From the NCBI GenBank assembly GCA_041651155.1, contig JBAZJU010000001.1, positions 91,932 to 155,931 on the forward strand: 64,000 nt of DNA, read 5' to 3'. Source of the DNA: Patescibacteria group bacterium (lineage in GTDB: Bacteria > Patescibacteriota > Patescibacteriia > CAIXNZ01). Below the pieces are notes generated by a model that saw only the letters and a program-made list of their open reading frames with translations, did no database searches and was not told the DNA's origin. Positions within the stretch are counted from its first letter, which is position 1. The number at the start of each line of letters is the position of its first letter. Shown here one piece after another: positions 23,014 to 59,888 of the stretch. Both the position numbers and the translations under genes were made by a program.

Positions 23014-23090
23014 GGAGCGGTAGTTCAGTTGGTTAGAACGCTACCCTGTCACGGTAGAGGTCACGGGTTCGAGTCCCGCCCGCTCCGCAC
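23014..23090 (+). tRNA. tRNA-Asp (anticodon GTC)
   Basis: A cloverleaf with GGAGCGG/CCGCTCC acceptor, GTTC..GAAC D-arm, CTACC-CTGTCAC-GGTAG anticodon arm and GGGTTCGAGTCCC T-arm. CCA is not encoded. Confidence 0.85.
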
Positions 23091-29985: not shown

Positions 29986-30160
29986 TGTTTCGTTTTTATT
30001 TTAAAAATTTTATTAAATAGCTCGTCATTTTAGTGGCGTGCCATTCGAAGCGCAGTAAAAAGATTTTAACTTGCCCTTCTTCGCTTATTCTTTGTTATTC
30101 TCTTAGCTAAAATCTTAAAGTTAATAAAGCTACGAAGGGCATTCTTCGCTGCGCGAAGAA

Positions 30161-44302: not shown

Positions 44303-44543
44303 AGTTAGTATATCAGGAACTCTTGATTTTAGCAAGTGTAGAGTAATTAGAGGTTCGGCCTCCAATTTGGAGGCCGAACCTCTTTGCGTTTACGAAAGGT
44401 CGCGGATGTACAATTTAGTGTTATTTCGTGTCAATTTTTCGTGGTTCAGCTCCATTTGAACAAAAATTTGATTCATGCTAAAATGCTAATATCTCCAAGA
44501 TGTTATATTGCTGTGTAACATTTTTTTAATTCAAACGTCTTAT

Positions 44544-45113: not shown

Positions 45114-46470
45114 AATTTACAACTCAAATAAAACAATGAAGAAACGCGACCTTCTCAAACAAATTAATAATTTGAAAAAAACAATTAAGCCTGATTCAGC
45201 CTGGCAAAAGGCAAATCGGGAGATTTTGCTGTCTCAAATCAAATCCCAGACCAGCGCAGAATTTTCTTATAGCCACAAAATAATGCTGCAGAATTTATTT
45301 CTGGCTGTTTATAAGCCGGTTGGCAGCATGATTTTAATTTGCAGCGTTTTATTCGGCGCCTGGATTGCCAGCGTGGGGGCGACTAAAAACAGCCAGCCGG
45401 GCGATTTATTATACGGCTTGAAATTAACCGCAGAAAGAATGCAGGTTAATTTGACTATGAATGATGAAAAACGTACTAATTTAGAAATCGCTTTTGCTGA
45501 AAGAAGGTTAGATGAAATCAAGCAGACTACTGCCAAAGACGGTTCAAACAAAAACAAGAAGAATCTGGAAGTAACCCTGAAAAATTTTCAGGAAAGCATA
45601 AATAATGTCAAAAGCAATCTGGCCAAATTAGAAGCGACTGATAAGCAGGCTGCTTTGAAAGTTGCTGATTTAATTGATGAAAAGACCAAGTCTTATGTCG
45701 GGATATTAAAAGATCAACAAGATCAAAATCCGCAATTTGTGGCGAGTGAAAACGCTGAACAGGCTATTTCAGATTCCAAAGCAACAGGCAATAAAGCTTT
45801 AAGCGTGATTTTGGAAGAGTTTGAAGCCGGCAATAGCGGCTTGAAAGTTGATGATTTAAGGCAAAAAATTAATACCAGAATTGATGATTTGGATAAAAAC
45901 ATAGAATCAGCCAAAAGTGATATCCCCCTGATTATTGAGAATAAGAAAATAGCTGATGAAGCGGCCGCTGCCAAAGCTCTGGCGGATAAAGAAGCTGCCA
46001 AAAAAGCCGAGGAAGAAGCCGCCGCTAAGGTTTTGGCGGATAAAGAAGCCTTGGCGAAAACGGAGCTAAGCTCCGACGCTTCGGAGCTTAGCTCCGTTCA
46101 GGAAGTTGCTAATACCAATACTAATACATCACCAGAACCGGTTAAAGAAGCCCAGCCAGAATTACAGAACACTAATAGTTCAGCTGAAATCAAGCAAGAT
46201 GAGCAAATAGTTAGCCAGCCTGAAGAGGTTTTGCCAACGATTGATGAGATTAAAAATAAGCCTGCAGAAGCCGCAGCCTTATTGGTCAGAGCGCGTGATT
46301 ATGTAAAAAGCGGTTCTGTGAGCCAGGCTTTTGATCTGGTAAAACAGGCTGATGACATTATGACTTTGGTCAATAAAGTGATTAAGGCAAATAGTGTTTA
46401 TTTAGAAGCACCGGAAGAAGTGAAGGTAGGTGAACCGGTTGATGTAATGACGAACCTTCGTTTGCAGTAG
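45094..46470 (+). CDS. Putative anti-sigma factor (single-pass membrane, coiled-coil, Ala/Lys/Glu-rich)
   Basis: It overlaps the sigma gene by 20 nt, suggesting translational coupling. A TM helix lies at about residue 76-96. The periplasmic part is helical and low-complexity. Confidence 0.45.
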   Translation: MKLIKNKIYNSNKTMKKRDLLKQINNLKKTIKPDSAWQKANREILLSQIKSQTSAEFSYSHKIMLQNLFLAVYKPVGSMILICSVLFGAWIASVGATKNSQPGDLLYGLKLTAERMQVNLTMNDEKRTNLEIAFAERRLDEIKQTTAKDGSNKNKKNLEVTLKNFQESINNVKSNLAKLEATDKQAALKVADLIDEKTKSYVGILKDQQDQNPQFVASENAEQAISDSKATGNKALSVILEEFEAGNSGLKVDDLRQKINTRIDDLDKNIESAKSDIPLIIENKKIADEAAAAKALADKEAAKKAEEEAAAKVLADKEALAKTELSSDASELSSVQEVANTNTNTSPEPVKEAQPELQNTNSSAEIKQDEQIVSQPEEVLPTIDEIKNKPAEAAALLVRARDYVKSGSVSQAFDLVKQADDIMTLVNKVIKANSVYLEAPEEVKVGEPVDVMTNLRLQ

Positions 46471-46492: not shown

Positions 46493-46667
46493 AATGACAA
46501 AGCATCAATAACAAAATAAATTCAAATAATTAAATTTAAATAACAAAACTTGAATAACAAAAAAATAATCAATGACAAAATCTAGATAACCAAAAAATAA
46601 GAAATAAATAAAAATTTCCGCCTCTGGCGGAAAATAATAAAACAAAAATAAAAATTAAAGTAAAAAT

Positions 46668-47009
46668 ATGGATTTTGATTTGGAGGATAGGACATTAAAA
46701 TTTGCGAAAAATTGCCTTGATTTGTGCAAGCAATTGCAGAAGGATGTTATAAGTTTGGAGTTGGTTAAGCAATTTGTGAGAGCGTGCTGTTCAGTCGGGG
46801 CAAATTATAGAGAAGCAAATGACACAATAACTAAAAAGGATTTTTTACATAAAATTGCGATTTGTCGTAGGGAGTCTAAAGAAAGTAAGTATTGGTTGGA
46901 ATTGTTGCTGCACACTAACCCCAATTTTAAACTGCAAATTGAACCTCTGATTGACGAATCCCACCAACTAGCCCGCATCTTTGCCAGCATCGGCGCGAAA
47001 AAGAAGTAG
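46668..47009 (+). CDS. four-helix-bundle protein (TIGR02436)
   Basis: A paralog of the 2957 and 11629 genes. It is flanked by A/C-rich repeats upstream and their inverted T/G-rich copies at 47010-47140. Confidence 0.75.
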   Translation: MDFDLEDRTLKFAKNCLDLCKQLQKDVISLELVKQFVRACCSVGANYREANDTITKKDFLHKIAICRRESKESKYWLELLLHTNPNFKLQIEPLIDESHQLARIFASIGAKKK

Positions 47010-47118
47010 TTTAGTTATTTGATATTAAGTATTAGTTATTTAAATTTTGAGTTTATTTTGGTTATTAAGTATTAGGTATTTGGTATTCTTTTGGTATTTT
47101 ATATTGGTCATTTGGTAT

Positions 47119-47458: not shown

Positions 47459-50400
47459 ATGATTAAGAAAATTTTTACTGTTGGCGTGGTAGTATTGACC
47501 ATTTTTTGGGCTGTCGGTCTAGCAGCATTTGTTCCAACCGCTCAGGCTACAACTTTTAGCTCTGGCGATTTGATCAAAGCTTCTTTACCAGCAGTTTATT
47601 ACTACGGTGCTGACGGCAAAAGGTATGTGTTCCCAAACGAACCAACATACAAAACCTGGTATGCTGACTTCTCCAGCGTGAAAACTATCACTGACGGAGA
47701 ATTAGCCACCATTCAAATCGGCGGCAATGTCACTAACAAACCAGGCGTTAAAATGGTGAAAATCACCACTGATCCAAAAGTATACGCTGTGGCTGCAAAT
47801 GGCACATTGAGGTGGGTAACCACTGAATCACTTGCTGCTTCTTTATACGGTTCTAACTGGGGAGCAATGATTCTTGATGTGTCTGATGCTTTCTTTGTTA
47901 ATTACTCTATTGGCGCTCAAATCAGCAATGTTTCTGATTATTCTCCATCTGCTGCAACTGCTGCTGCTCAATCAATCAATGTTGATAAGGGCTTAGCAGG
48001 CGCAACAACAACTGGCGGTAATTTAAATGTTTCTTTAGCATCTGATACACCAGCTGCTTCTACAGTTGCTGGCGGTGCTGCTGCTAATATGTCAAAGATC
48101 ATTTTAGCTACTGGTTCCGCAGCTGTTAAAGTTAAATCTTTATACATCACTCGTTCAGGCTTAAGCGCAAACGATGATGTTGAAAATGTTAAATTAATCA
48201 ATGTTGCTGGCGCTACTGTTGGCGATGTTGGTTCATTTGGTTCAAACAGCAAAGCATTAATTTCTTTTGTTCCATCATTAGAAATTGCTGCTAATACTTC
48301 AGTCTCATATTATGTCCGTGCTAGTATCAGATTAGGCGCTCCTGCTGGCAACACGGTTGCTTTGGGCGTTGCATTAAATACTGATGTAGTATTGGAAGCA
48401 GGTACTGTTAGCGGTGCATTCCCAGTCGTTGGCAACTACATGTCAATTGTAGCTTTAGCTAACATTGGCAGTGCTACTGTTGGCCAAGATGCAGCAGTTG
48501 TCGATACTATGCCAGATGCTGGCGCAAAAAGAGTTCAGGTCTCTGAATTTTACGTCATGGCTGGTGCAAATGAAGATTTGACTATTGAAGCTATGAGTTT
48601 AATTGAAGCTGGTTCAGCAAATACTGCTGATTCAGCTAATATTGAATTATACAGTTTGACAGAAGGTAGAACATTGGGCACTGCTGCTTCATGGGATGCA
48701 AATTCTCGTGTTACTGTTGGTAGCATGAATGTTGTTATTCCAAGAGGTGGTAAACACATTTTCCAGGTTTATGCTGATATCGTAAGCGGTTCAGGCAACG
48801 TTATTGATGTTGATTTAACTGATGGTACTGATGTTTTAGTAACTGTTAAGGGTAATACCTATGGTTTTTATCTTTCTCCAATAGTTGCTGTGACTCCTCC
48901 ATTAAACTGGGATGGTCAAGGTATTCCAGGAGTAGGTGGTCAAACCGTAGGCGCTGGTTTATTAAATGTTACTAAATCAACTTCTTCTCCAGCTACTGGT
49001 AATATTGCTCGCGCTTCTGATCAGGCAATTGCAACTTATGATTATGAAGTACGAGGTGAATCTATTAAGATTACTTCAACTATGGTTACAATTACAGAAG
49101 GTGCTGCATTTAATAATGTTGTTCCAAACTGGAATAGAGTTGCTAATGTGAAATTAGTTGATGAAAACGGTTTAGTTGTTGCGGGCCCAAAGAATTTAAC
49201 AAATGTATCTGTCGGCGCTGCCGGTGGTGTTACAACTGTTACTTTCAATGAAACTTATGTTGTACCAACTGGTACTCATAAATACACTGTTAAAGTTGAT
49301 GTTTTGAGCAATGCTCCAGCTGGCGCAACAGCTACTTTGGTAGCTAGTTTAACTCCAAGCGCTGATATTACAGCAACTGGGGTTACAACTCGTGAAAGTG
49401 TAGTTCCAACGCCTGCTGTTGCTGTCGCTGGCAATGGTGAGACTATCTTGGGTGTAGCATTAACTGTTACCAATTTAACTCAACCAGCTGCTAGATCAAT
49501 TGCTGTTGGTACTCAGAATTTTGTCTGGGCAACTACTTCATTAGATGCAACTGCTTCTGGTGAAGATGTTCGTGTTTCATCTGTTACAGTTTTGGATACT
49601 TTAGGTGTTGGTAATACTGATGATATGACTGCTTTGCAGAATCTTTCAATCTGGGCAGATTTAACATCAGCTAGTTCTACTCGTGGTGATGCTTATGAAA
49701 CAAAGGTTTCTAATAATGAGCAGCCAACACTTGCTACTACTAAAGCAATTAACTTAACACAAGTTATCACTGTTCCAAAAGGAACTTATGTTAAGATTGC
49801 TGTTGTTGGTAATTTATCAACCTTAGCATTTGTTACAGATACTCACCAGATTAGTATTGCTGCGCCTATAACAGCAACTGGTAAATCAACAGGCAATGCT
49901 CCTGTTATCCCAGCTATTATTACTTTGGGACAGGTAATGCTTGTATCTGCTTCTGGTACTTTAACTGCGTCATTAGATGCTTCTACTCCATTAGCTAATA
50001 TTGTAGTTAGTGGTGCACAAAAGGTTACTGTTGCTGCTTTCAAATTAACAGCTGATAATATTGAAGCTATTGAACTTGATGATCTTTTGGTTAATGATGT
50101 TGCGGCAATTGCTACAAATCCAGTTGCATCAAATTGGTACTTGTATGCAAATAGTCGCGCTGATGGCGGTTCAATTGCTGATCCGGTTGCTGTAGCTGCT
50201 GGCGGTTTTGCGCCACAATTCATTTTAGCTGATAATACAATTGTTGTTCCATCTAATAGCAGTGTTGTCTTGACTCTTAAAGCAGACATCGCCCCTGTTG
50301 ATGGCGCTACTGTAATTAATGGTGATGATTTAATCCCAGAAATTACTGCAGCTGCAAGCATAAATGCTACAGGCGTGTCTTCTGGTGTCCCAGCCACCAT

Positions 50401-50956
50401 CTTTAATGGTCTTGGCTGGTTCCCAAAAACTGCTGCTACAGATTTGGCATTTGCTTCAAAACCAACTATCAGCCTAAATGCTTCTTCTCCAAGCGGTGCC
50501 TTAGTGCCAAGCGCTAATACTTTAGTAGCCATCTTTAATATTGCTGCTGATTCAGCTGATGATATTTCCTTTGATGACGCTGGAAGCGCAGGCACAAAAT
50601 TAGTAGTTACTATGGCTGAAGCTTGTACTGGTGCTGGTGGCGCTACAAATATGATTTTGAAAGACGAAGGTGGCACAGTTTTATCTACCGCAACAGAAGC
50701 TGCTGATGCATGTACTGTTGGCAATAAGACATTTGAAGTCTGGACTAACCCATTAGTTATTGCTAAAGGTACCACCAAGAAAGTATATGTCTATGGTGTT
50801 ACTACTAGTGCAACAACTGCTGGTGATAATTTACAGGCTTCTATTACAGATGCTGCTGCTGGCAATGTTACTTGGGGTATTAATGGTGCAGGTGCTTTTG
50901 CAACTGCTGCCATTACTGCTCGTGGTTCAATTTATGCCAATGCACTTTCTAGATAA
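47459..50956 (+). CDS. Large secreted surface (S-layer-like) protein, 1165 aa, with the N-terminal shared ~125-aa domain
   Basis: A signal peptide (AFVPTAQA), then GDLIKASLPAVYYYGADGKRYVFPN...LRWVTTESLAASLYGSNW. A/T/S/G/V-rich with few Cys. Paralogous to 54421. Confidence 0.8.
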   Translation: MIKKIFTVGVVVLTIFWAVGLAAFVPTAQATTFSSGDLIKASLPAVYYYGADGKRYVFPNEPTYKTWYADFSSVKTITDGELATIQIGGNVTNKPGVKMVKITTDPKVYAVAANGTLRWVTTESLAASLYGSNWGAMILDVSDAFFVNYSIGAQISNVSDYSPSAATAAAQSINVDKGLAGATTTGGNLNVSLASDTPAASTVAGGAAANMSKIILATGSAAVKVKSLYITRSGLSANDDVENVKLINVAGATVGDVGSFGSNSKALISFVPSLEIAANTSVSYYVRASIRLGAPAGNTVALGVALNTDVVLEAGTVSGAFPVVGNYMSIVALANIGSATVGQDAAVVDTMPDAGAKRVQVSEFYVMAGANEDLTIEAMSLIEAGSANTADSANIELYSLTEGRTLGTAASWDANSRVTVGSMNVVIPRGGKHIFQVYADIVSGSGNVIDVDLTDGTDVLVTVKGNTYGFYLSPIVAVTPPLNWDGQGIPGVGGQTVGAGLLNVTKSTSSPATGNIARASDQAIATYDYEVRGESIKITSTMVTITEGAAFNNVVPNWNRVANVKLVDENGLVVAGPKNLTNVSVGAAGGVTTVTFNETYVVPTGTHKYTVKVDVLSNAPAGATATLVASLTPSADITATGVTTRESVVPTPAVAVAGNGETILGVALTVTNLTQPAARSIAVGTQNFVWATTSLDATASGEDVRVSSVTVLDTLGVGNTDDMTALQNLSIWADLTSASSTRGDAYETKVSNNEQPTLATTKAINLTQVITVPKGTYVKIAVVGNLSTLAFVTDTHQISIAAPITATGKSTGNAPVIPAIITLGQVMLVSASGTLTASLDASTPLANIVVSGAQKVTVAAFKLTADNIEAIELDDLLVNDVAAIATNPVASNWYLYANSRADGGSIADPVAVAAGGFAPQFILADNTIVVPSNSSVVLTLKADIAPVDGATVINGDDLIPEITAAASINATGVSSGVPATIFNGLGWFPKTAATDLAFASKPTISLNASSPSGALVPSANTLVAIFNIAADSADDISFDDAGSAGTKLVVTMAEACTGAGGATNMILKDEGGTVLSTATEAADACTVGNKTFEVWTNPLVIAKGTTKKVYVYGVTTSATTAGDNLQASITDAAAGNVTWGINGAGAFATAAITARGSIYANALSR

Positions 50957-51009
50957 TTGTTGATTCACTGAGATATATTCTTTCCGCGCTCGCGGAATAG
51001 AATAGCGAA

Positions 51010-51044
51010 CCCCTCTGGCGCAAGTCAGGGGGGTTTTGTTTTGG
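51010..51044 (+). terminator. rho-independent terminator (cccctctg..cagggggg plus T-run)
   Basis: An 8-bp stem with one G-U, followed by ttttgttttgg. Confidence 0.6.
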
Positions 51045-51259
51045 TGGAAGAATGGTGGTTTGGGAGGAATTTATCAACCTCCCCCAATCCCCCTCCTTTT
51101 CTAAGGAGGGGGTATGGAGGTTATCATGACCTAAGGTGCAGGGCTTTGGGTTTTGTTTTTTGGGGAAGATCGTGGAGGGAGTGGGACGGTTGATTTGTTT
51201 TGTTTAGGGATTTATGGTATTATAAAGGGAGCAATTATTTAATATTCAATTTAAAAAAT

Positions 51260-51517
51260 ATGAAAGAAAAAAATAAATTACAATTTAATATTATTTTTAG
51301 GCCTGAAGAAGAAGGTGGATTTACTGCAATAGTTCCGTCTTTGCCAGGTTGTATTACTTACGGCAAAGATTTAAAAGAAGCTAAAAAAATGGCGATTGAT
51401 GCAATTTATGGCTATATTGAATCAGTAAAAAAACATAAAGAAGAAATACAGTCAGATGAGGAAAGTTTTATTAGTTTAATTAGGCTTCCTCAAAAGCACT
51501 CTAGACTTTATGCCTAA
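51260..51517 (+). CDS. hicB: HicB family antitoxin (UPF0150 N-domain)
   Basis: EEGGFTAIVPSLPGCITYGKDLKEAKKMAIDAI. The ORF-track start at 51200 lies inside the conserved promoter repeat, so the real start is 51260. Confidence 0.65.
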   Translation: MKEKNKLQFNIIFRPEEEGGFTAIVPSLPGCITYGKDLKEAKKMAIDAIYGYIESVKKHKEEIQSDEESFISLIRLPQKHSRLYA

Positions 51518-51734
51518 ATTGCCATCATTAACTCCAAAGAAACTTTTACGAGTATTGGAAAAATGCGGGTTTGTAACAGACCATATAGCCGGCAGCCACT
51601 ATATCCTTTTTCAATCCGCTTCAAATAAAAGAATTACATTGCCATTCCATTGTAAAGATTTGCCAAAAGGTACCCTCCACTCTATTTTAAAGGCAGCCGG
51701 AATTGAAATAACAGATTTGAAAAAATTAAAATAA
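51510..51734 (+). CDS. hicA: HicA family mRNA interferase toxin
   Basis: LLRVLEKCGF...GSHYILF...LPFHCKDLPKGTLHSILKAAGI. It overlaps hicB by 8 nt. Confidence 0.7.
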   Translation: MPKLPSLTPKKLLRVLEKCGFVTDHIAGSHYILFQSASNKRITLPFHCKDLPKGTLHSILKAAGIEITDLKKLK

Positions 51735-51948
51735 CTCGTCTCGGCTCGCCTCGCGAAGCGGGCTTCGCTGGACATAGATATCGTTTTTGTCCCTTGAGTG
51801 CCTTCGCCGAAGTCGGATGAAAAACACAAATCTCGCCATTTTTTAAAGGGCGTTTTTTGTTTTGCTCTGTAACACATTTGGTGCAGGGCTTTGGTTTTTA
51901 CGATAAAATTAAGGTCGGAAACCCCATAAATTTGGGTTTTATGCCGTA

Positions 51949-52014
51949 TTGACTTTTGGCAGAAAAAGAAGTAAAATGAAAGTAGTTTCAATAAAAATGA
52001 AAGTAGTTTCAATT
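51949..52014 (+). promoter_or_regulatory. Promoter TTGACT-N17-TAAAAT with two 17-nt direct repeats (ATGAAAGTAGTTTCAAT x2) as a candidate operator of the MNT-HEPN pair
   Basis: The -35 is at 51949-51954, the -10 at 51972-51977. The direct repeats are at 51976-51992 and 51998-52014. Confidence 0.5.
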
Positions 52015-52016
52015 TT

Positions 52017-52547
52017 ATGAATATTAAATTGACCATTCTCAATAAGAAAGTATTTAATTTCTTGGCTGATTGGCCTGAAAAACAGTTTTTTTCTAAGGAA
52101 ATCTCCGACAGATTGGGGATATCTTTGGGTGGCGCCCATAACAGCCTCAAGGCTCTGCTAAAGGCAGGCGTGGTTGTTTTTGAGCAAAAAGGGAATATGA
52201 AGTTTTTTAAAATTAACTTTAGCAGCCCTTTGTTTAAACAATTGCGCTCGGCAGGCATTGTGGAGAGCCTTTTGCCTTTGGTTAAGAAAATAAAAAATCA
52301 CTGCCTCAATGTGATTTTATTCGGCTCCGCGGCCAGGGGCGAACAGACTGCCAAAAGCGATATTGATATTTTTATATTAACCAATAATCCGTTGGAAATA
52401 AGAAAATTACTGCCAGCCAAAATTAACCGACTGCTTCTTAAGGCCATAATTAAAAAACCGAATGAGTGGAGCGAAATGGAAATTAAGGAACCGGAGTTTT
52501 TTAGGGAAATAAAAAACGGGATTAAATTATATGAATCAAGATTTTAA
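52017..52547 (+). CDS. Nucleotidyltransferase (MNT, minimal NTase) with an N-terminal winged-helix; antitoxin-type partner of HEPN
   Basis: ILFGSAARGEQTAKSDIDIF matches the GS-x9-DxD NTase motif. Confidence 0.7.
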   Translation: MNIKLTILNKKVFNFLADWPEKQFFSKEISDRLGISLGGAHNSLKALLKAGVVVFEQKGNMKFFKINFSSPLFKQLRSAGIVESLLPLVKKIKNHCLNVILFGSAARGEQTAKSDIDIFILTNNPLEIRKLLPAKINRLLLKAIIKKPNEWSEMEIKEPEFFREIKNGIKLYESRF

Positions 52548-52968
52548 TGATTGCCTGGACAAGGGCAAGATAAAAATATTTTCCAGGGGGAAGTTTGTTG
52601 CCCCTAAGGAAATCAGATTGGCTGAGGAAGACTTGAAGATTGCCTCGGCAAGCTTTAGTGACGGCAATTTTCGCTGGTGCGTGATTCAGACGTATTATTC
52701 TATGTTTCATTCAGCGAGAGCCTTATTGTATTATCAAAATTATCGGGAGCATAGCCATTATTGCCTTATTCAGGCAATCAGAGCATTGTATGTTGGAAAC
52801 AAATTATTGGATTTGTCACTGGTTGAAGCAATGGCCGAAGCGAAAAATCTGAGGGAAGCCGCGGATTATTACGGAGATTATAGCCAAATTAACGCGGAAA
52901 AATTATTGGAACATGCCAAGAATTTTTTAAAAGCGGCAAAGGATATTATAAAAAATGGTACTTTATAG
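52531..52968 (+). CDS. HEPN domain protein (toxin-type partner of MNT)
   Basis: Helical; FHSARALLYYQ and LREAADYYGDY fit the Rx4-6H-type HEPN motif region. It overlaps the MNT gene by 17 nt. Confidence 0.65.
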   Translation: MNQDFNDCLDKGKIKIFSRGKFVAPKEIRLAEEDLKIASASFSDGNFRWCVIQTYYSMFHSARALLYYQNYREHSHYCLIQAIRALYVGNKLLDLSLVEAMAEAKNLREAADYYGDYSQINAEKLLEHAKNFLKAAKDIIKNGTL

Positions 52969-53238
52969 CGGACTTCAGTCCGCGAATGACCCCATTACCT
53001 TACGGGGACTTCCACCGTCGCTCTGTGAGTTATGGCGGACAAGAAAGTCCCCTGTAATGATTTTTCTTTGTTAAGGTCCTCTGTAATGATTTCTCTTTAT
53101 TTTTATGATAAAATTAAGGTGGAAAACCCCATAAATTTGGTTTAAGGAGGGGGTGTTTACAGGAGTTTTTTATTTGTTTTGTTTAGGGATTTATGGTATT
53201 ATGAAAGGAGCAATTATTTAATATTTTATTTAAAAAAT

Positions 53239-53508
53239 ATGAAAGAACAATCCTGCCTGCCGGCAGGCAGGTTAAAAATTTCAAAATTTGGCAGGCAATT
53301 GCCTATTGTTATTGAAAAAGGGGAAGATGGTTTTTATATTGTAGAATGCCCGCTTTTTGACGGTTGTTTTACACAGGGTAAAACAATTGATGAGGCGCTT
53401 AGAAATATTAAAGAAGTCATATCTTTGATTTTGGCAGAAAAAGACGCCAGAAATACTTTGAAGGAATATAAATCAACAGAATTTAGTTTGCATACCATTA
53501 CCGTTTAA
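53239..53508 (+). CDS. HicB-like antitoxin, second copy
   Basis: EDGFYIVECPLFDGCFTQGKTIDEALRNIKEVI. The ~80-nt upstream region (53164-53241) is a repeat of 51185-51262. Confidence 0.6.
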   Translation: MKEQSCLPAGRLKISKFGRQLPIVIEKGEDGFYIVECPLFDGCFTQGKTIDEALRNIKEVISLILAEKDARNTLKEYKSTEFSLHTITV

Positions 53509-53511
53509 TTT

Positions 53512-53703
53512 ATGACCCGCTTACCCATTATTTCCGGCAGGAAATTGATTAAAGTTCTTAATAAGGTTGGTTATGAATCTATCAGGCATCAAAGGCGTGG
53601 ATGGTTGCTGTTACTGATTATAAAGTTATTGACCGATCATTATTATTAAAGATATTGCGCGATGCAGAATTATCCGCAGATGATTTTATGAAGTTGATGA
53701 ATT
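53512..53703 (+). pseudogene. hicA-like gene, frameshifted; contains a 33-nt segment identical to part of the tmRNA gene
   Basis: Frame 1 encodes MTRLPIISGRKLIKVLNKVGYESIRHQ. Frame 3 continues KAWMVAVTDYKVIDRSLLLKILRDAELSADDFMKLMN, which aligns to the HicA C-terminus. The segment 53580-53612 equals 30350-30382. Confidence 0.55.
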
Positions 53704-53761
53704 AATATTTGAATATATATATTTACAGACCGCCTGGCCTTTCCGGGTGGTTTTGTTTTTT

Positions 53762-53795
53762 GCCCTGCACCAGTCGCTTCTCTCCGGTGCAGGGC
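53762..53795 (+). repeat. REP-like perfect hairpin gccctgcacc-N14-ggtgcagggc upstream of the transposase; solo half-copies occur at 51135 and 51890
   Basis: A 10-bp perfect inverted repeat. ggtgcagggcttt recurs three times in the island. Confidence 0.55.
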
Positions 53796-53846
53796 TTTAT
53801 ATTTTGGAAATTGAATGGTAAAATTAAGGTGGGGAAAAATAAAAAT

Positions 53847-54395
53847 ATGAATGAATTATTTAAAAATAAATATCGTACAGATTCCGTTCGTTTAAAAGAA
53901 TGGGATTATTCTTGGCCGGGTTTATATTATGTAACAATTTGTACCAAGGATCGTTTTTGTTGTTTAGGGGATGTAAAAAATGGTTTGGTTTATTTATCGG
54001 AAATTGGGAAAATCGTGTTTGAAGAATGGTTAAATACGCCAAAGATCAGACCGAATGTGGCGTTGGATGATTTTATTATAATGCCGAATCATATTCATGG
54101 AATTATAGAAATTAAAGAAATTGGGGATGTTGTAGAGACGCATTGCAATGCGTCTCTACAGAAACCCACATTCGGCCCGCAACGCAATAATTTGGCCTCA
54201 ATAATTCGTGGTTTTAAAGGGGTTGCCAAGAAAAGAATAAATCAAAAATTTGGAGAAAATTATTTTGCCTGGCAATCTGGCTATTACGAACACATTGTCC
54301 GGGACGAAGATGATTATGCCAGAATTAAAGAATATATTGCCTTAAATCCGATCAGATGGGAACTTGACAGAAATAATCCAAAAAATAGATCCTAA
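53847..54395 (+). mobile_element. IS200/IS605-family Y1 (HUH) transposase, RAYT-like
   Basis: The HUH motif PNHIHGIIEI and the catalytic Tyr region QSGYYEHIVRDEDDYARIKEYIALNPIRW. The ORF track extends it to 53709. No room exists for a right-end hairpin before the next gene. Confidence 0.7.
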
Positions 54396-54420
54396 AATAT
54401 TAATTATAAATTTTAAAATT

Positions 54421-56397
54421 ATGTCAAAACGAATTTTCACAATCGGAATTGTGGCTATGACCATATTGTGGTCTATTGGCTTGTCTGCTTTTACACCAAG
54501 CGCGCAGGCAGCCACAATTAATTCAGGCGATTTAATTAAGGCTTCCACGCCTGCGGTTTATTATTATGCCAATGACGGCAAACGCTATGTTTTTCCCAAT
54601 GAAAAAACATTTAAAACCTGGTATGCTGATTTTTCCAGTGTGAAAATAATTACAGATGCAGAATTGTCTGCTATTTCTATTGGCGGCAACGTTACTTACA
54701 GACCCGGAGTTAAAATGGTAAAAATCACGACCGATCCCAAAGTCTATGCTGTGGCTAGCAATGGGACATTGCGCTGGATAACAACAGCCTCTTTGGCCAC
54801 GCAATTATATGGCGCAAATTGGGCGACAATGGTTGATGATGTGCCTGATTCATTTTATGTGAATTATAATGTTGGTTCGCCAATTAATAATCTGACTGAT
54901 TATAATCCTGCAGCCACAACCGCAGCTTCCCCTTCAATTAATGCTGATAAAAGCTTGATTATGCCGACTGTTGGTTCAGTTTTGACAGTTTCTCTGGCAC
55001 CTGATACACCGGCTGCTGGTACTGTGCCTGCTGGTACGACTGTTAATTTTACTAAGATTATTTTTAGCGCGAGTAATTCAGCAGTCAGCATTAATTCAAT
55101 CTATGTAACGCGTTTTGGCTTGAGTACAAATAATGATGTAACTAATATTCAGTTTGTTAATACCAGTAATGTGGCGATTAGCAGTATTGCGAGTTTAGGT
55201 TCTGATAGCAAAGCCTTAGTTACATTTAGCCCTGCTTTAATTGTTAATCCAAATAGTCCTGTGAGCGTATATATCAGGGCAAACATTAGCCAAACAATCT
55301 CAAGTGGTAATACTATAGGTTTGGGTATTAATTCAGCCAGTGACATTAAATTGGCTCCAGGCACAATTAATGGCATCTTTCCAATGCTAGGAAATTATCT
55401 GGGCAGCAGCTCTTCTGCCAATATTTCAGGTTTAACCCCGCCGGAAGGAATTTTAATTGCTGGCAGAAGTAAACAGGGCGTAGCTTCGTTTAAAGTCCAG
55501 GCAGGCCAGGCAGAAGATATGGATTTAAATAGCGTCACAATCACTGATACAGGCACTGGCAAAGTAGCTAATACCTGGTATTTATATTCAAGCAAAAGAA
55601 ATGACGGCATTTCTATCAGCGAACCGGTGGGAACTGCGATTATGGACTCAGTGAATAAAAATGCCAGATTTATTTTGCCTACCAATACGATAATTATACC
55701 TGCCAGCCAAAGTGTTACTTTGACAGTTGCAGTTGATGCTGTGTTAGTTGATGGGGTGACAGTGCAAAATGGCGATACGCTTCACGCAATTGTAGCGGCT
55801 GGAACTGATATTGTGGCCACAGGCAAGGCTTCTGGCCAGCAAATAAACGGCAGCGCCGTACTTGACTCTAAAATATATTATATCTTAGCCTCTTACCCTT
55901 ATTTCAGCCTGGATGCTGCTTCGCCAAAAGGAGCCTTAGTGCCTGGAGCCAATACCTTGCTGGCTATTTATGATGTGACAGCTGACTCGGCTGATGAGGT
56001 GGACTTTTTAAACGCAGGGACAAATACTTCTGGCGTGGCTAATAAGTTAAGGGTTGATATCGCGCACAATTGTACTGCCGGCCTTGGTTTGGGGCTCACT
56101 TTGAAAGATGAAGCTGGCAATGTGCTGGACACTCAGGCAGTTGATGTGTGTAATAGCGCCAGCGCAACTTTTACCTTTGGCAATCCTAATAATTTGGCAA
56201 TTGCAGCCGGCGCCACAAAAAAATTATATATTTACGCTGATACTCAAGGCGCGACCAGCGCAGGGGATAGCATTCAGCTTTATTTAAGCGATTCAAATCC
56301 GGCAAATGTTGATTTCGCGATAAATGGAGCAGGTAATTATCAATTTGCCCAGTTTATTTTCAGAAGCAATATTTATAGCAATCCTTTGGCGAGATAA
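54421..56397 (+). CDS. Secreted surface protein, paralog of 47459, with the N-terminal shared domain
   Basis: A signal peptide (AFTPSAQA), then GDLIKASTPAVYYYANDGKRYVFPN.... It is collinear with the 47459 N-terminus and C-terminus (...YSNPLAR versus ...YANALSR). The ORF track starts at 54364. Confidence 0.8.
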   Translation: MSKRIFTIGIVAMTILWSIGLSAFTPSAQAATINSGDLIKASTPAVYYYANDGKRYVFPNEKTFKTWYADFSSVKIITDAELSAISIGGNVTYRPGVKMVKITTDPKVYAVASNGTLRWITTASLATQLYGANWATMVDDVPDSFYVNYNVGSPINNLTDYNPAATTAASPSINADKSLIMPTVGSVLTVSLAPDTPAAGTVPAGTTVNFTKIIFSASNSAVSINSIYVTRFGLSTNNDVTNIQFVNTSNVAISSIASLGSDSKALVTFSPALIVNPNSPVSVYIRANISQTISSGNTIGLGINSASDIKLAPGTINGIFPMLGNYLGSSSSANISGLTPPEGILIAGRSKQGVASFKVQAGQAEDMDLNSVTITDTGTGKVANTWYLYSSKRNDGISISEPVGTAIMDSVNKNARFILPTNTIIIPASQSVTLTVAVDAVLVDGVTVQNGDTLHAIVAAGTDIVATGKASGQQINGSAVLDSKIYYILASYPYFSLDAASPKGALVPGANTLLAIYDVTADSADEVDFLNAGTNTSGVANKLRVDIAHNCTAGLGLGLTLKDEAGNVLDTQAVDVCNSASATFTFGNPNNLAIAAGATKKLYIYADTQGATSAGDSIQLYLSDSNPANVDFAINGAGNYQFAQFIFRSNIYSNPLAR

Positions 56398-56455: not shown

Positions 56456-56632
56456 AGGAAATTTGGGACTCAATTCCCAATTGTAGATAATTATAAGCGG
56501 TTGTTTAGGAAGTAATTCGGAATTGAGTTCCGTTGCCAGCTCATTTTTATGGGCTGGTTTGTTTTTAAAGCGATATTTTGATAAAATTAAGGTATACATA
56601 TAAATCAATAATTAAATTTTAAATCAAAACTT

Positions 56633-58267
56633 ATGCGTAAAATCATTTTCTTATTTTTGATTTCATTAATTTTAGTTGTGCCTCAAGCTAAGGCATTTCA
56701 GTCCAATGCTATTGTTAATAATGGCGCGCCTTATACGACTTTTTACCGCGGTACTTTTGATGATTTGGTCATGGATTTCAGCTTAATTACTCTAAATGCC
56801 GATACGGTTAAGGCAATTTCTTTAAAAAATTTAGGCACTTCCAGCTACTTGCGCGATATAACATATATGAAATTGTGGGCTGATGAAGGGCCGCTTGGGT
56901 TCCAGGGCATGGGCATTGACCGCGAAATCGGGACTCTGAGCTATTCAACGACATACTTGTCTTGGTCAATTGAAAACCTTAACGAAATAATCAATACAAG
57001 TGAAAGATTTTTTATCTCAGTGGAAACTTATTCCAGTTTGAGTGCTTCAACCACCATTCATATGCAGATTCCTATTTTAACGGATAATAACAATAATGGC
57101 AGCTATGATGCCGGCGACTTTGGCATTTTTATGGATTCTGGCAATAATGGACCGACTGATGTGAACATTGATAATGCCAATACACAAGTAACCAGCACCT
57201 CGTCAGTTGATAGCTTGACGCCAAAAGTGATTTTAGCAAATTTGAATGATGGCGCGATTTTAACAAATGATAATTTTATTATCAACGGTTTGGTGCGTGA
57301 TCAGGGCAATACTTATCTGCAAACATTCCAGATAATTATTGATGATCAGGCAATCAGCATTGATAATTACGATCAGTTTAACTATACCTGGAATTATAAT
57401 TGGCAGAATATCAGCGATGGAAAACATACAGTGAGTGTTTTGGCGCGCGATGGCTGGGGCAATACTACCCAGACCAATCCATTAACGATTACTGTGAATA
57501 AGCAGCTATTTTCAGTTGCAAATTCAGCAGCGACAATTGATAAGTCAGGGATTAAAAATGACGGTTTGGATAAGGCCACGGTCACTGTAATTATCAAAGA
57601 TCAAAACAATCTGCCAATAGCGAATCGTCAGATAACAGTGGAAACGAGTTCGGATGTGATTATTTCCAATCCGACTAATAATTCTGATGCAAGCGGGAAA
57701 ATTGTTTTTGAAGTAAGATCCACCGCTTTAGGCCTGAAAACAATAGCAGTTAAGGTTGCTGATACGCTTTTGCAGACTTTAACTTTAAACGTTAATACGG
57801 GAATTCAGCCTGCTTTTGGCCTTAATTTTGGGGATTTAATCAAAGCCTCAACTCCGGCTGTTTATTATTACGGGGCTGATGGCAAAAGATATGTTTTTCC
57901 CAATTTAAAAACATATTTGACCTGGTATAATGATTTTTCTGGAGTTAAAGCAATTACTGATGAACAGCTCGGACAAATTACAATCGGCGGGAATGTGACA
58001 TATCGTCCGGGAGTTAAACTTGTTAAAATTACTACTGATCCAAAAGTTTACGCCATAGACAGCCATGGAACTTTGCGCTGGATTACCTCTGAGCAACTGG
58101 CTATCCAGCTGTATGGCGCTAAATGGAATACACTGGTTGAGGATGTCTCAGATGCTTTTTTTGTTAATTACTTGACGGGAAACCAGATAAATTCTTTGAG
58201 TGATTTTAGTCCGGTTGATGTTAAAAATGCGGCTGGTACGATTAATATTGATAAGGGGTTATTATAG
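56633..58267 (+). CDS. Secreted protein with bacterial Ig-like (Big_1-type) domains and the C-terminal shared domain
   Basis: A signal peptide. KATVTVIIKDQNNLPIANRQITVETSS...GKIVFEVRSTALG is Big-like. The C-terminus reads GDLIKASTPAVYYYGADGKRYVFPN.... Confidence 0.6.
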   Translation: MRKIIFLFLISLILVVPQAKAFQSNAIVNNGAPYTTFYRGTFDDLVMDFSLITLNADTVKAISLKNLGTSSYLRDITYMKLWADEGPLGFQGMGIDREIGTLSYSTTYLSWSIENLNEIINTSERFFISVETYSSLSASTTIHMQIPILTDNNNNGSYDAGDFGIFMDSGNNGPTDVNIDNANTQVTSTSSVDSLTPKVILANLNDGAILTNDNFIINGLVRDQGNTYLQTFQIIIDDQAISIDNYDQFNYTWNYNWQNISDGKHTVSVLARDGWGNTTQTNPLTITVNKQLFSVANSAATIDKSGIKNDGLDKATVTVIIKDQNNLPIANRQITVETSSDVIISNPTNNSDASGKIVFEVRSTALGLKTIAVKVADTLLQTLTLNVNTGIQPAFGLNFGDLIKASTPAVYYYGADGKRYVFPNLKTYLTWYNDFSGVKAITDEQLGQITIGGNVTYRPGVKLVKITTDPKVYAIDSHGTLRWITSEQLAIQLYGAKWNTLVEDVSDAFFVNYLTGNQINSLSDFSPVDVKNAAGTINIDKGLL

Positions 58268-58322: not shown

Positions 58323-59888
58323 ATGAAGAAGTTTCAATTCATTATTGGTCTTTTAATATCCAGCCTTTTAGTGGGCAGTTTTGCTTTTGCGCAGGAATTA
58401 TTGCCAAATGATCCATATTATAGCCGGCAATGGTATTTGGAAAAATTAAACCTGCCCCAAATCTGGGCGCAGGAAACCGGCTCAAAAAATGTAATTATCG
58501 CAGTCATTGATTCTGGCATTGATGTTTCACACCCTGATTTGCATGATAATATCTGGGTTAATCAAAAGGAAATCCTAGGCGATGGCATTGATAATGACCA
58601 TAATGGCTATATTGATGATATTAGCGGCTGGGACTTTATAAATAATAGCAATGATCCTTCGCCCAAATATGATGTTAGTTGCTTGCAAAATAACACTTGC
58701 ACTGAAGACGGCATTTTTCACGGCACATTTGTGGCCGGGGTGGCTGCGGCTGTCGGCAATAATGGCATTGGCACAACAGGGGTTGCTTGGAATGTAAAAA
58801 TAATGCCGCTGAGAGTGCTGAATGAAAATGGCAGCGGCAATACTGTAGACGTGGTTAAAGCTATTGAATATGCGATTAATAATGGCGCCAACATCATTAA
58901 TTTAAGTTTTGTCGGCGACACATATGATTTAGCTTTAGAACAGGCATTGGTCAACGCTTATCAAAAGGGATTAGTGATAGTGGCTGCTTCTGGCAATGAA
59001 AATCAGGCTGGCCAGGCAATTAATTTAGATTTAACTAAAATGTACCCAGTCTGCCATCAAGGTCCTGGCGGCCAAAGAATATTACTTGGCGTGGGCGCAA
59101 CAGACATTTTTAAAAAAATAACCGAGTTTTCCAATTACGGCTCAAGCTGTGTTGATATCATGGCGCCTGGCAGAGATTTTTTTGGCACCCTGGTCTATAA
59201 TCCTCAGGTGAGCAGTTTTAATCAATATTATGGCGGTAATTTTTCCGGCACTTCTTTGGCTGCGCCTGTTGTTTCAGGCGTGGCCGCTTTAATAAAATCA
59301 TATAAGCCGGAATTGACCAACCAGCAGATCATGGATGCAATTAATAAGAATGCTGAAAATATTGATGCGCTAAATCCTGCCTTTGTAGGGAAAATGGGCA
59401 ATGGCTTGATAGATCCGGTTAAAATTTTTCAGAATTTGAAAATGTCTGTAATTAACAGCCAATTGATCAAGGGTTCCACGGCTGCAATTTATTATTTAGG
59501 CAGTGATGGCAAACGCTATACTTTCCCGGATCAAAAGGTTTTTTTTAGCTGGTATGACAGCTTTAAGGGCATTAAACAAATTTCCGATCGGGAATTGTCT
59601 GATTTTACACTGGGAGGAATCGTAACTTACAGGCCAGGCGCAATGGTTAAAATTCAAACTGATCCAAAAGTGTATGCAGTAACCCAGGGCGGTATTCTAA
59701 GATGGATTAAAAATGAAACAATAGTCCAGGCATTGTATGGCAATGTTTGGGCGCAATTAATTTTTGATGTGCCAGATTCTTATTTTGCTATTTATAAAAT
59801 TGGCGCTGACATAAATAGCGCGCTAGATTTCAATCCTGTCATAGAGAAAAATAATGTACCTTCAATTGATATAGATAAGAGCTTATAA
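58323..59888 (+). CDS. Subtilisin-like serine protease (peptidase S8) with the C-terminal shared domain
   Basis: The catalytic triad contexts are VIAVIDSGID (Asp), HGTFVAGVAAA (His) and GTSLAAPVVSGVAAL (Ser). A signal peptide is present. Confidence 0.85.
   Translation: MKKFQFIIGLLISSLLVGSFAFAQELLPNDPYYSRQWYLEKLNLPQIWAQETGSKNVIIAVIDSGIDVSHPDLHDNIWVNQKEILGDGIDNDHNGYIDDISGWDFINNSNDPSPKYDVSCLQNNTCTEDGIFHGTFVAGVAAAVGNNGIGTTGVAWNVKIMPLRVLNENGSGNTVDVVKAIEYAINNGANIINLSFVGDTYDLALEQALVNAYQKGLVIVAASGNENQAGQAINLDLTKMYPVCHQGPGGQRILLGVGATDIFKKITEFSNYGSSCVDIMAPGRDFFGTLVYNPQVSSFNQYYGGNFSGTSLAAPVVSGVAALIKSYKPELTNQQIMDAINKNAENIDALNPAFVGKMGNGLIDPVKIFQNLKMSVINSQLIKGSTAAIYYLGSDGKRYTFPDQKVFFSWYDSFKGIKQISDRELSDFTLGGIVTYRPGAMVKIQTDPKVYAVTQGGILRWIKNETIVQALYGNVWAQLIFDVPDSYFAIYKIGADINSALDFNPVIEKNNVPSIDIDKSL

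Follow-up and report, generated by a model that had tools for sequence, protein, structure and literature searches.

A variable gap between two conserved surface-protein genes of a Patescibacteria genome, a probable hot spot of toxin-antitoxin module turnover

We analysed a stretch of 64 kb (the window) from a metagenome-assembled Patescibacteria genome, and in particular the gap between two paralogous surface-protein genes, here called BIG and P658. This gap is probably a hot spot at which toxin-antitoxin (TA) modules common in Patescibacteria are gained, shuffled and decay. Comparison with relatives suggests an ancestral order of BIG, terminator hairpins, a gene for a REP-associated tyrosine transposase (RAYT; REP, repetitive extragenic palindrome) with an extended -10 promoter, and P658. 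In this lineage three TA operons would have come to lie around the RAYT promoter, i.e. hicB1-hicA1, an operon encoding a minimal nucleotidyltransferase with a winged helix-turn-helix (wHTH-MNT) and a HEPN protein, and hicB2 with a dead hicA2 (Table 1). The cassettes were most likely gained, duplicated or shuffled by recombination between short homologous stretches, with DNA from related genomes; transposition of the cassettes is less likely. The promoter of the MNT-HEPN operon is overlapped by two palindromic operators 21 bp apart, which the winged helix is likely to bind, thereby repressing its own operon. An earlier note on this DNA had listed hicB-hicA, MNT-HEPN with its promoter, a second hicB with a broken hicA, and a Y1 gene, and all of these were found, with small shifts of coordinates.

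We compared the gap with 13 related contigs, each of which carries a P658 ortholog at 62-86% identity; L006, L009, L027 and L042 are short contigs that show part of the gap only. BIG and P658 were neighbours in the same order wherever a contig reached far enough, with or without TA genes between them. This answers the question of adjacency that the earlier note had raised as its own check. The contents of the gap differed in nearly every relative, the components being DUF559 genes, two RAYT subfamilies, MNT-HEPN, HepT/DUF86 and hicB remnants. No TA gene was present in the complete gaps of L003/L024, L004, L005 and L023. L005 and L030 carried RAYT only, L003 and L024 a DUF559 pseudogene with a 5'-truncated RAYT, and L023 a truncated RAYT of the second (b) subfamily. 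L006 had MNT-HEPN (70% and 74% identical to the window proteins) with the second RAYT type, and L007 had DUF559, an MNT (83%), a remnant in which HEPN(1-13) is fused to the end of hicB, and the RAYT promoter only. In L009 and L027 a HepT/DUF86 module was followed by the same operator pair, lying directly before hicB, with hicA degraded or missing; these arrangements, like the fusion in L007, are deletion remnants.

The arrangement in the window is unlikely to be an assembly artefact, because independent assemblies agree (contigs of 293,782 bp, ENA ERZ27247363, and 348,259 bp both carry this locus) and because a Logan unitig from a second sample, L002, is 100% identical to the window between the two copies of an 82-nt repeat in which it ends. 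The same 29 nt at both ends of L002 had suggested a circular molecule, which we rejected, as the ends fall in the 82-nt repeats, where the de Bruijn graph breaks.

The borders of the modules point to the mechanism. In L005 and L030 the 'empty' site reads GGTGCAGGGCTTTGGTTTTTATGGTAAAATTAA immediately before the RAYT gene, and this sequence occurs, in full or in part, three times in the window (at 51135, 51880 and 53786), exactly where the hicBA1 module and the MNT-HEPN/hicB2 block have their borders. At the same three positions, all inside the gap, lie the only exact copies of GGTGCAGGGCTTT in the window, against 0.14 expected. Junction copy B matches the sequence immediately before the RAYT gene of L005 and L030 at 94% over 36 nt, and it matches L027, where junction copies B and D are adjacent, at 100% over 27 nt. 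The first copy of the 44-nt repeat, which follows junction copy B, is 91% identical to the second; this repeat and the 82-nt block mark inner borders. The segment 53762-53833 is 97% identical to L027, the neighbouring P658 ortholog of which is only 73% identical as a protein. A further hairpin-bearing segment, the X element, has counterparts in L027 (1021-1110, 91% identity over 90 nt) and L042 (240-287, 94% identity over 48 nt); in both it adjoins the P658 ortholog upstream, and in the window it follows HEPN. Because copies of the RAYT terminator/promoter and of the 82-nt block are found at the module borders, recombination at short homologies is the mechanism that we favour, and the flanking duplications of 20-80 nt would then be products of such recombination rather than transposase target duplications.

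Exchange between lineages is supported by these intergenic identities to L027 (91-97%) together with the comparison with L007, in which the synonymous divergence (dS) of MNT was 0.63, compared with 1.38 for the flanking P658 and 1.58 for BIG segments, a contrast that rests on 110-176 codons (~2.8 standard errors) with synonymous sites near saturation. We considered whether the TA genes and RAYT could instead be ancestral and vertically inherited, the differences between relatives being independent losses and decay with no horizontal input. Such a history would fit the occurrence of MNT-HEPN with the same promoter and operators at the same site in distant branches (window, L006 and L007), the operator relics in L009 and L027, and the plain decay of hicA2, of HEPN by deletion and of the truncated RAYTs. 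In addition, the dS values between the window and L006 are flank-like (MNT 1.55, HEPN 1.35, P658 1.44), so part of the pattern is probably old presence followed by loss. However, in the comparison with L007 the synonymous divergence of MNT is half that of its flanks, the intergenic modules shared with L027 are far closer than the proteins beside them, and close relatives differ in the RAYT subfamily that this gap contains (a type in the window, b type in L023 and in L042, which has an 86% identical P658 ortholog). Furthermore, hicBA1 and the 82-nt block were in none of the relatives compared, and pure loss would require at least five independent losses. We therefore regard a purely vertical history as unlikely.

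Several points weigh against turnover by recombination as we describe it. No recombination intermediate or alternative junction was observed, the mechanism being read from the positions of the repeats alone; the synonymous sites are near saturation, the L006 values resemble those of the flanks, and the gap is seen only in part in the four short contigs. As regards the MNT-HEPN operon, its HEPN protein does not have the canonical His of the R-x4-6-H motif, and the operator pair precedes hicB in L009 and L027 with no wHTH gene visible, which leaves the link between the operators and the winged helix of MNT unproven. The operators in these two relatives are most simply read as deletion relics.

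The earlier note had proposed that a TA and transposase insertion splits the surface-protein pair, and that the island either mediated or followed the duplication of the surface-protein gene. As regards the transposase, the first proposal does not hold, since most relatives have a RAYT gene of one of the two subfamilies in this gap and often a RAYT in the following one as well. In the case of duplication by the island, a TA/transposase island would have inserted at a single surface-protein locus and brought about its duplication, e.g. by recombination between island copies. The island does lie exactly between the paralogs and does hold repeats, and in the L005/L026 lineage an extra [RAYT-P658] unit has apparently been duplicated in tandem. 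However, all relatives keep the two genes in the same order, even where there are no TA genes, and BIG and P658 are 47% identical across the N-terminal 478 residues and 41% across the C-terminal 343, as against 62-86% between P658 orthologs, so the duplication predates both the clade and the present cassettes. Duplication by the island is thus very improbable. The sequences indicate that the duplication is ancestral and, because the pair exists in relatives without TA genes, independent of the island; of the two options only an island that followed the duplication survives.

By its motifs the Y1 gene is a RAYT resembling TnpAREP subclass 2.4. This subclass (Quentin et al. 2018, PMC6006769; Bertels group 4) has the HuH motif NH[IFV]H, the W motif WQ and the motif Y-x3-NP (YIxNNP) (PMC6006769 Table 1), and its peculiarity is a REP with a GTAG foot lying in frame within the gene, between the HuH and Tyr motifs (PMC6006769). 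The window protein is of the same size class (~180-190 aa) and carries NHIH, WQ and Y-x3-NP in the contexts PNHIHG, AWQ and YIALNP (YIANNP in relatives), with the key residues H82/H84 of HUH, W142-Q143, E148-H149, R152 and Y163 of YIALNP. The catalytic residues are invariant in seven syntenic homologs, and the GTAG-contacting residues known from the E. coli enzyme (W, Q, E, H and R) are all present; the sole PDB relative is E. coli TnpAREP (4ER8). The gene also contains the in-frame palindrome, a perfect 28-nt GTAG...CTAC structure between the HUH and Tyr motifs. This palindrome was found in 9/9 RAYT copies examined, with 97.4% of cells paired and 5/12 pairs altered on both sides, mostly in the L004 lineage. 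The homologs read it in differing frames (VETHCNASLQ, RDAPWHVST, GNGRDRSLP), and the DNA palindrome, rather than the encoded peptide, is therefore what is conserved. Unlike described members of subclass 2.4, the window RAYT has no flanking or dispersed REP copies in the window, where extragenic copies of the palindrome are absent; in the fetched relatives exact matches lie only inside RAYT genes. It also scores below the cut-off of NCBIfam REP_Tyr_transpos (60.4 bits against 80), a threshold that the b-type RAYT of L006 exceeds at 104 bits, and the hosts of the subclass are mainly Cyanobacteria and Bacteroidetes (PMC6006769), whereas here the host belongs to Patescibacteria. Of the earlier label, an IS200/RAYT-type transposase, the RAYT half therefore stands, and IS200/IS605 identity was rejected, the tyrosine motif being Y-x3-NP rather than Y-x3-Q, with a single copy in the window and no tnpB.

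The RAYT could in principle be the engine of turnover, recognising the border hairpins as single-stranded DNA and capturing or moving TA and DUF559 cassettes in an integron-like manner. This would agree with the position of the RAYT gene, which in most relatives is at the gap's downstream end, with cassettes that abut hairpins, one border motif being the 3' arm of the hairpin directly before the RAYT promoter, and with the retained HUH, Tyr and GTAG-recognition residues. However, the junction hairpins all lack the GTAG/CTAC foot recognised by RAYTs of this class, the sole such palindrome being inside the gene, and L007 and L027 carry cassettes with no RAYT. The 20-80-nt flanking duplications look homology-based, unlike HUH cleavage products, and no RAYT element carrying cargo has been described (PMC6006769). 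We give this role of the RAYT very little credence. A broader version is scarcely more credible; in it, Y1 HUH enzymes would land site-specifically in the gap before every surface-protein gene, with close relatives alternating between two RAYT subfamilies, and would capture or move the TA and DUF559 cassettes via terminator-like hairpins, as in an integron.

RAYT copies within one genome are only 45-87% identical, and viral contigs contained no RAYT relative. RAYT genes also occur in the next gap, after P658, in L005, L025 and L009, with a degraded copy in L004. In L005 (9179-12539) a unit of RAYT and a P658-like gene seems to have been duplicated again in tandem, its two RAYT copies being 87% identical, and L026 (1-3031) shows the end of a P658-type gene, a RAYT and then a P658-like gene. 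In its linker, the b-type RAYT of L006 (1500-1680) contains a GC-rich segment (GGCCGTCGGGAACCGCC[T/G]GACGA) that is directly duplicated and may correspond to the in-gene REP of a-type RAYTs. DUF559 genes or pseudogenes (Vsr-like endonuclease fold) were seen in surface-array gaps of L003 (8790-9125), L007 (436-849), L009 (6598-6927) and L023 (3673-4071), usually between hairpins of the CCCCCT...AGGGGG type.

The MNT-HEPN operon consists of a nucleotidyltransferase gene (G[GS]x9-13DxD) and a HEPN gene, which overlap by 17 nt. The MNT protein has an N-terminal winged helix, with weak HTH_20, HTH_24 and MarR_2 matches at residues 12-56, followed by the minimal nucleotidyltransferase domain (GS...DID) and the motif FGSAARGEQTAKSDIDIF. 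PADLOC assigned it to the defence-candidate family PDC-M05A (4.5e-21) and recognised no other protein, and the NCBIfam MntA_antitoxin model gave 31 bits, under its cut-off of 60. The TTGACT-N17-TAAAAT promoter of the earlier note was found at 51949-51977. The tandem operator repeat that it had described is also real, although it is 20 nt long rather than 17 (AAAATGAAAGTAGTTTCAAT, 51973-51992 and 51994-52013) with a period of 21. Each copy holds a TGAAA-N4-TTTCA palindrome (TGAAA-GTAG-TTTCA), and the two operators overlap the -10 box and the transcript start. The half-sites TGAAA/TTTCA are invariant and the centres variable across five loci (window, L006, L007/L008, L009 and L027), as would be expected of a site for a dimeric repressor. 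The wHTH-MNT is a predicted antitoxin and autorepressor, whose winged helix most likely binds these operators, and HEPN is its predicted toxin partner.

Mobile two-gene modules of the MNT-HEPN and HicAB types are well established (PMC2701414). With MNT-HEPN pairs (COG1708/COG2250, Makarova et al. 2009, PMC2701414) and type VII HepT-MntA the window operon shares a GS...DxD MNT gene followed by an overlapping HEPN gene, and the patchy distribution of a mobile module. It differs in the winged helix on MNT, in the two palindromic operators in front and in the MntA score below cut-off. Its HEPN is also of the UPF0332/AF0298-like type and, in Pfam, not DUF86/HepT; the closest solved structure is AF0298 (2HSB, E 3e-7). 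In its motif LREAADYYGDY the Arg is present and a Tyr stands at the His position of R-x4-6-H, so that RNase activity should not be assumed. AF0298 likewise has no His in this motif, and the Rx4HxY motif of HepT is absent from the window protein. A 2026 paper on fused MNT-HEPN proteins (PMC13000451) does not deal with the HEPN motif of the COG2250 type.

HicA toxins cleave mRNA, and HicB neutralises them by binding. The hicB1 and hicA1 genes are co-oriented and overlap by 8 nt, as in other HicAB type II operons, and both domains score above their Pfam cut-offs; HicA1 keeps G-S-H, and the two proteins are predicted to form a complete type II pair. In the second module the toxin has been lost. 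The hicA2 pseudogene runs in frame 0 from 53512 to 53649, is hicA-like for 27 codons and then switches frame, its C-terminal part continuing to 53705 in another frame. Some 11-13 codons have been lost, among them the segment in which HicA1 has G-S-H (with the catalytic His), and the rejoined peptide gave only 16.7 bits to HicA_toxin (cut-off 27). HicB2 is therefore a predicted orphan antitoxin. Unlike HicB proteins with a ribbon-helix-helix or helix-turn-helix DNA-binding tail, both HicBs here are short, HicB1 consisting of the RNase-H-like HicB fold alone, and neither hicBA module has an evident autoregulator because this tail is absent from both. HicB1 and HicB2 are only 35% identical over 34 residues, despite the 93% identity of the promoter blocks in front of them. 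A 20-nt palindrome, CCTGCCTGCCGGCAGGCAGG (53252-53271), lies in the first codons of hicB2, adds ~13-16 residues (QSCLPAGRLKI...) relative to hicB1 and resembles a small palindromic insertion into coding sequence.

The ~80-nt duplicated promoter block of the earlier note proved to be 82 nt long and slightly shifted. It comprises the promoter, the 5' untranslated region and the first four hicB codons, the promoter of copy 1 being TTGTTT-N17-TATTAT with TG. It had no copy in viral contigs. We found 562 hicB1 homologs, mostly in Patescibacteria and up to 82% identical, and, as is usual for HicAB, related modules lie scattered over unrelated genomic contexts. The closest hicBA homolog (79%, L043, another genome) lies between a diacylglycerol kinase gene and rplU with its own promoter, and the 82-nt block is not upstream of it. 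A minus-strand open reading frame (ORF) at 51611-52258 (215 aa) was judged spurious, as it spans two genes and an intergenic region.

The earlier description of the locus as a mobile addiction-module island holds in part. Addiction-type modules are present, they vary among relatives, and by its synonymous sites MNT is younger than its flanks in the comparison with L007. The gap is not a classical mobile genomic island, having no integrase and no tRNA nearby (tRNA at 23014, tmRNA at 30158). The G+C content of the gap (0.33-0.39, versus 0.38-0.44 in the flanking Thr/Ala-rich genes) is uninformative as a sign of foreign composition. With variable hot spots, defence or TA islands and with TA-rich chromosomal integron arrays the gap shares a fixed slot between conserved genes that is filled by differing small TA modules, as well as toxin decay and orphan antitoxins. 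In contrast to these systems it has no integrase, attC-like site, tRNA or phage gene, its borders are promoter/terminator repeats, and it is very small (~3.4 kb). The locus is thus a clean small example of addiction-module turnover in streamlined Patescibacteria genomes, i.e. a fixed slot in which toxins are lost first and antitoxins and operators are left behind. Patescibacteria are also added to the hosts of the REP-in-gene RAYT subclass 2.4, and two RAYT subfamilies replace each other at one site. The components are all of known kinds and current understanding is unchanged; what the analysis offers is a correct annotation and possibly a model locus for short-homology cassette exchange.

Table 1. 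Features of the gap and of the adjoining surface-protein genes (positions in the window).
Feature	Position	Strand	Basis or remark
BIG paralog, 1165-aa surface protein	47459..50956	+	ORF
Putative ancestral hairpins after BIG	50957..51134	+	hairpin searches, relatives
Hairpin TTCCGCGCTCGCGGAA	50982-50997		
Terminator-like stem after BIG	51007-51036		
Palindrome CCCCCTCCTT..AAGGAGGGGG	51089-51112		
Junction repeat copy A, GGTGCAGGGCTTTGGGTTTT	51135..51154	+	
Duplicated promoter block, copy 1	51190..51271	+	82 nt, 93% identical to copy 2
hicB1, predicted antitoxin, 85 aa	51260..51517	+	Pfam HicB_lk_antitox 34.7 bits (cut-off 27)
hicA1, predicted toxin, 74 aa, intact	51510..51734	+	Pfam HicA_toxin 56.8 bits (cut-off 27)
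Junction repeat copy B and 44-nt repeat copy 1, GGTGCAGGGCTTTGGTTTTTACGATAAAATTAAGGT...	51880..51938	+	copy of putative ancestral RAYT terminator/promoter
MNT-HEPN promoter and operators	51949..52013	+	TTGACT 51949-51954, N17, TAAAAT 51972-51977
Two palindromic operators TGAAAGTAGTTTCA	51977-51990, 51998-52011	+	
wHTH-MNT, 176 aa	52017..52547	+	Pfam NTP_transf_2 (39.8 bits), Polbeta
HEPN, 145 aa, COG2250/UPF0332 class	52531..52968	+	Pfam PF05168, 55.7 bits
X element, nested hairpins GCGGACTTCAGTCCGC, GGGGACTTCC...GAAAGTCCCC	52965..53058	+	RNA fold z = -3.8
44-nt repeat copy 2, RAYT-promoter-like, TGATAAAATTAAGGTGG	53100..53143	+	
Duplicated promoter block, copy 2	53169..53250	+	82 nt, 93% identical to copy 1
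hicB2, predicted antitoxin, 89 aa, now orphan	53239..53508	+	Pfam HicB_lk_antitox 35.2 bits
hicA2 pseudogene	53512..53705	+	three-frame translation, tblastn in two frames
Terminator-like hairpin (53727-53753), hairpin GCCCTGCACC...GGTGCAGGGC (53762-53795), junction copy D (53786-53805)	53727..53805	+	
RAYT promoter (TTTATA-N17-TAAAAT after TG) and 5' untranslated region	53796..53846	+	aligns with region upstream of L005 RAYT
RAYT, Y1 HUH enzyme, 182 aa	53847..54395	+	Pfam Y1_Tnp 28.7 bits (cut-off 23)
'Double-foot' REP palindrome GTAGAGACGC-ATTGCAAT-GCGTCTCTAC	54132..54159	+	in frame within RAYT gene
P658 paralog, 658-aa surface protein	54421..56397	+	AlphaFold2 model, orthologs
RAYT-promoter-like remnant TTTTGATAAAATTAAGGT	56576..56593	+	next gap, before Big_1 gene
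Shared ~150-aa domain	47560-48000, 54520-54960, 57830-58260, 59450-59880		motif GDLIKAS..VYYYGADGKRYVFPN...W

The GC-rich REP-like hairpins and short repeats that the earlier note described as scattered through the region are present, and they are local, not a dispersed REP family in the window: CCCTCCT-N6-AGGAGGG, CAACCTCCCCC, GTAGAGACGC and GGTGCAGGGCTTT were each absent from the rest of the window outside the gap region. A canonical GTAG foot occurs only in the palindrome within the RAYT gene. The element at 51068-51112 is a single copy in the window and is 89-92% identical at the equivalent site in L003, L024 and L004. We rejected GATAAAATTAAGGT as a repeat family, since it gave 4 matches against 2.2 expected (two mismatches), and read it as a promoter consensus with local copies. 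At gathering thresholds Rfam identified only the tmRNA and tRNA in the whole window, and at E<=1 on 50900-54450 it gave two chance-level matches only, with no family for the hairpins or the X element. The X element of L042 is a shorter form without the inner hairpin.

The gap lies within a cell-envelope cluster, which on the 5' side comprises glycosyltransferases, an HTH_17 gene, an ECF-type sigma factor, DUF5667, a small 23S-IVP-family gene and BIG, and on the 3' side P658, a Big_1 protein, an S8 peptidase, GtrA and sugar-modifying enzymes. The flanking cluster (sigma factor, DUF5667, Big_1, S8 peptidase and GtrA) is kept in L003, L004 and L005, which have no TA genes, and BIG orthologs occupy the equivalent position in L003, L004, L005, L023 and L025. 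BIG has an N-terminal transmembrane or signal helix, a ~150-aa shared domain and a Thr/Ala/Val-rich, beta-rich region, and matched no Pfam or NCBIfam family. According to its AlphaFold2 model (pLDDT 84), P658 is built from a membrane helix, an alpha/beta domain at residues 30-180 and three immunoglobulin (Ig)-like beta-sandwiches, and the best Foldseek matches of the model in the PDB are Gram-positive Ig-like adhesins (PrgB, AgI/II and CNA). The paralogs have no Pfam or NCBIfam S-layer domain and no S-layer protein was among the top 50 Foldseek matches, so the earlier designation 'S-layer-like' is a label with no specific support, the model resembling tandem Ig-like adhesins. These results are compatible with a surface-layer role, which the paralogs may have.

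The ~150-aa alpha/beta domain is common to four adjacent genes; BIG and P658 carry it at the N-terminus, and the Big_1 protein and the S8 peptidase at the C-terminus. On this basis the BIG/P658 'pair' is part of a larger four-gene array. The domain corresponds to no Pfam family, and it has more than 800 homologous proteins in Patescibacteria metagenomes.

One gap upstream, another variable small gene, of the 23S-rRNA-IVS family (46668-47009, PF05635), lies within 46493-47047 between 37-nt inverted repeats (46532-46568 and 47011-47047, 78% complementary), with four A-rich repeats of ~32 nt each upstream. A homolog with 31% identity is found at the same place in L004, and none in L003 or L005. 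The DUF5667 gene contains an in-frame perfect 40-nt palindrome with an 18-bp stem (AACGGAGCTAAGCTCCGACGCTTCGGAGCTTAGCTCCGTT, 46059-46098). Upstream of the sigma-factor gene there is a 35-nt hairpin, AGAGGTTCGGCCTCCAATTTGGAGGCCGAACCTCT (44349-44383), which is retained there in L003 (~2001-2029) and L024 and sits instead inside the variable gap in L027 (839-865). This hairpin is a low-copy palindromic element found at differing intergenic sites, moving between them.

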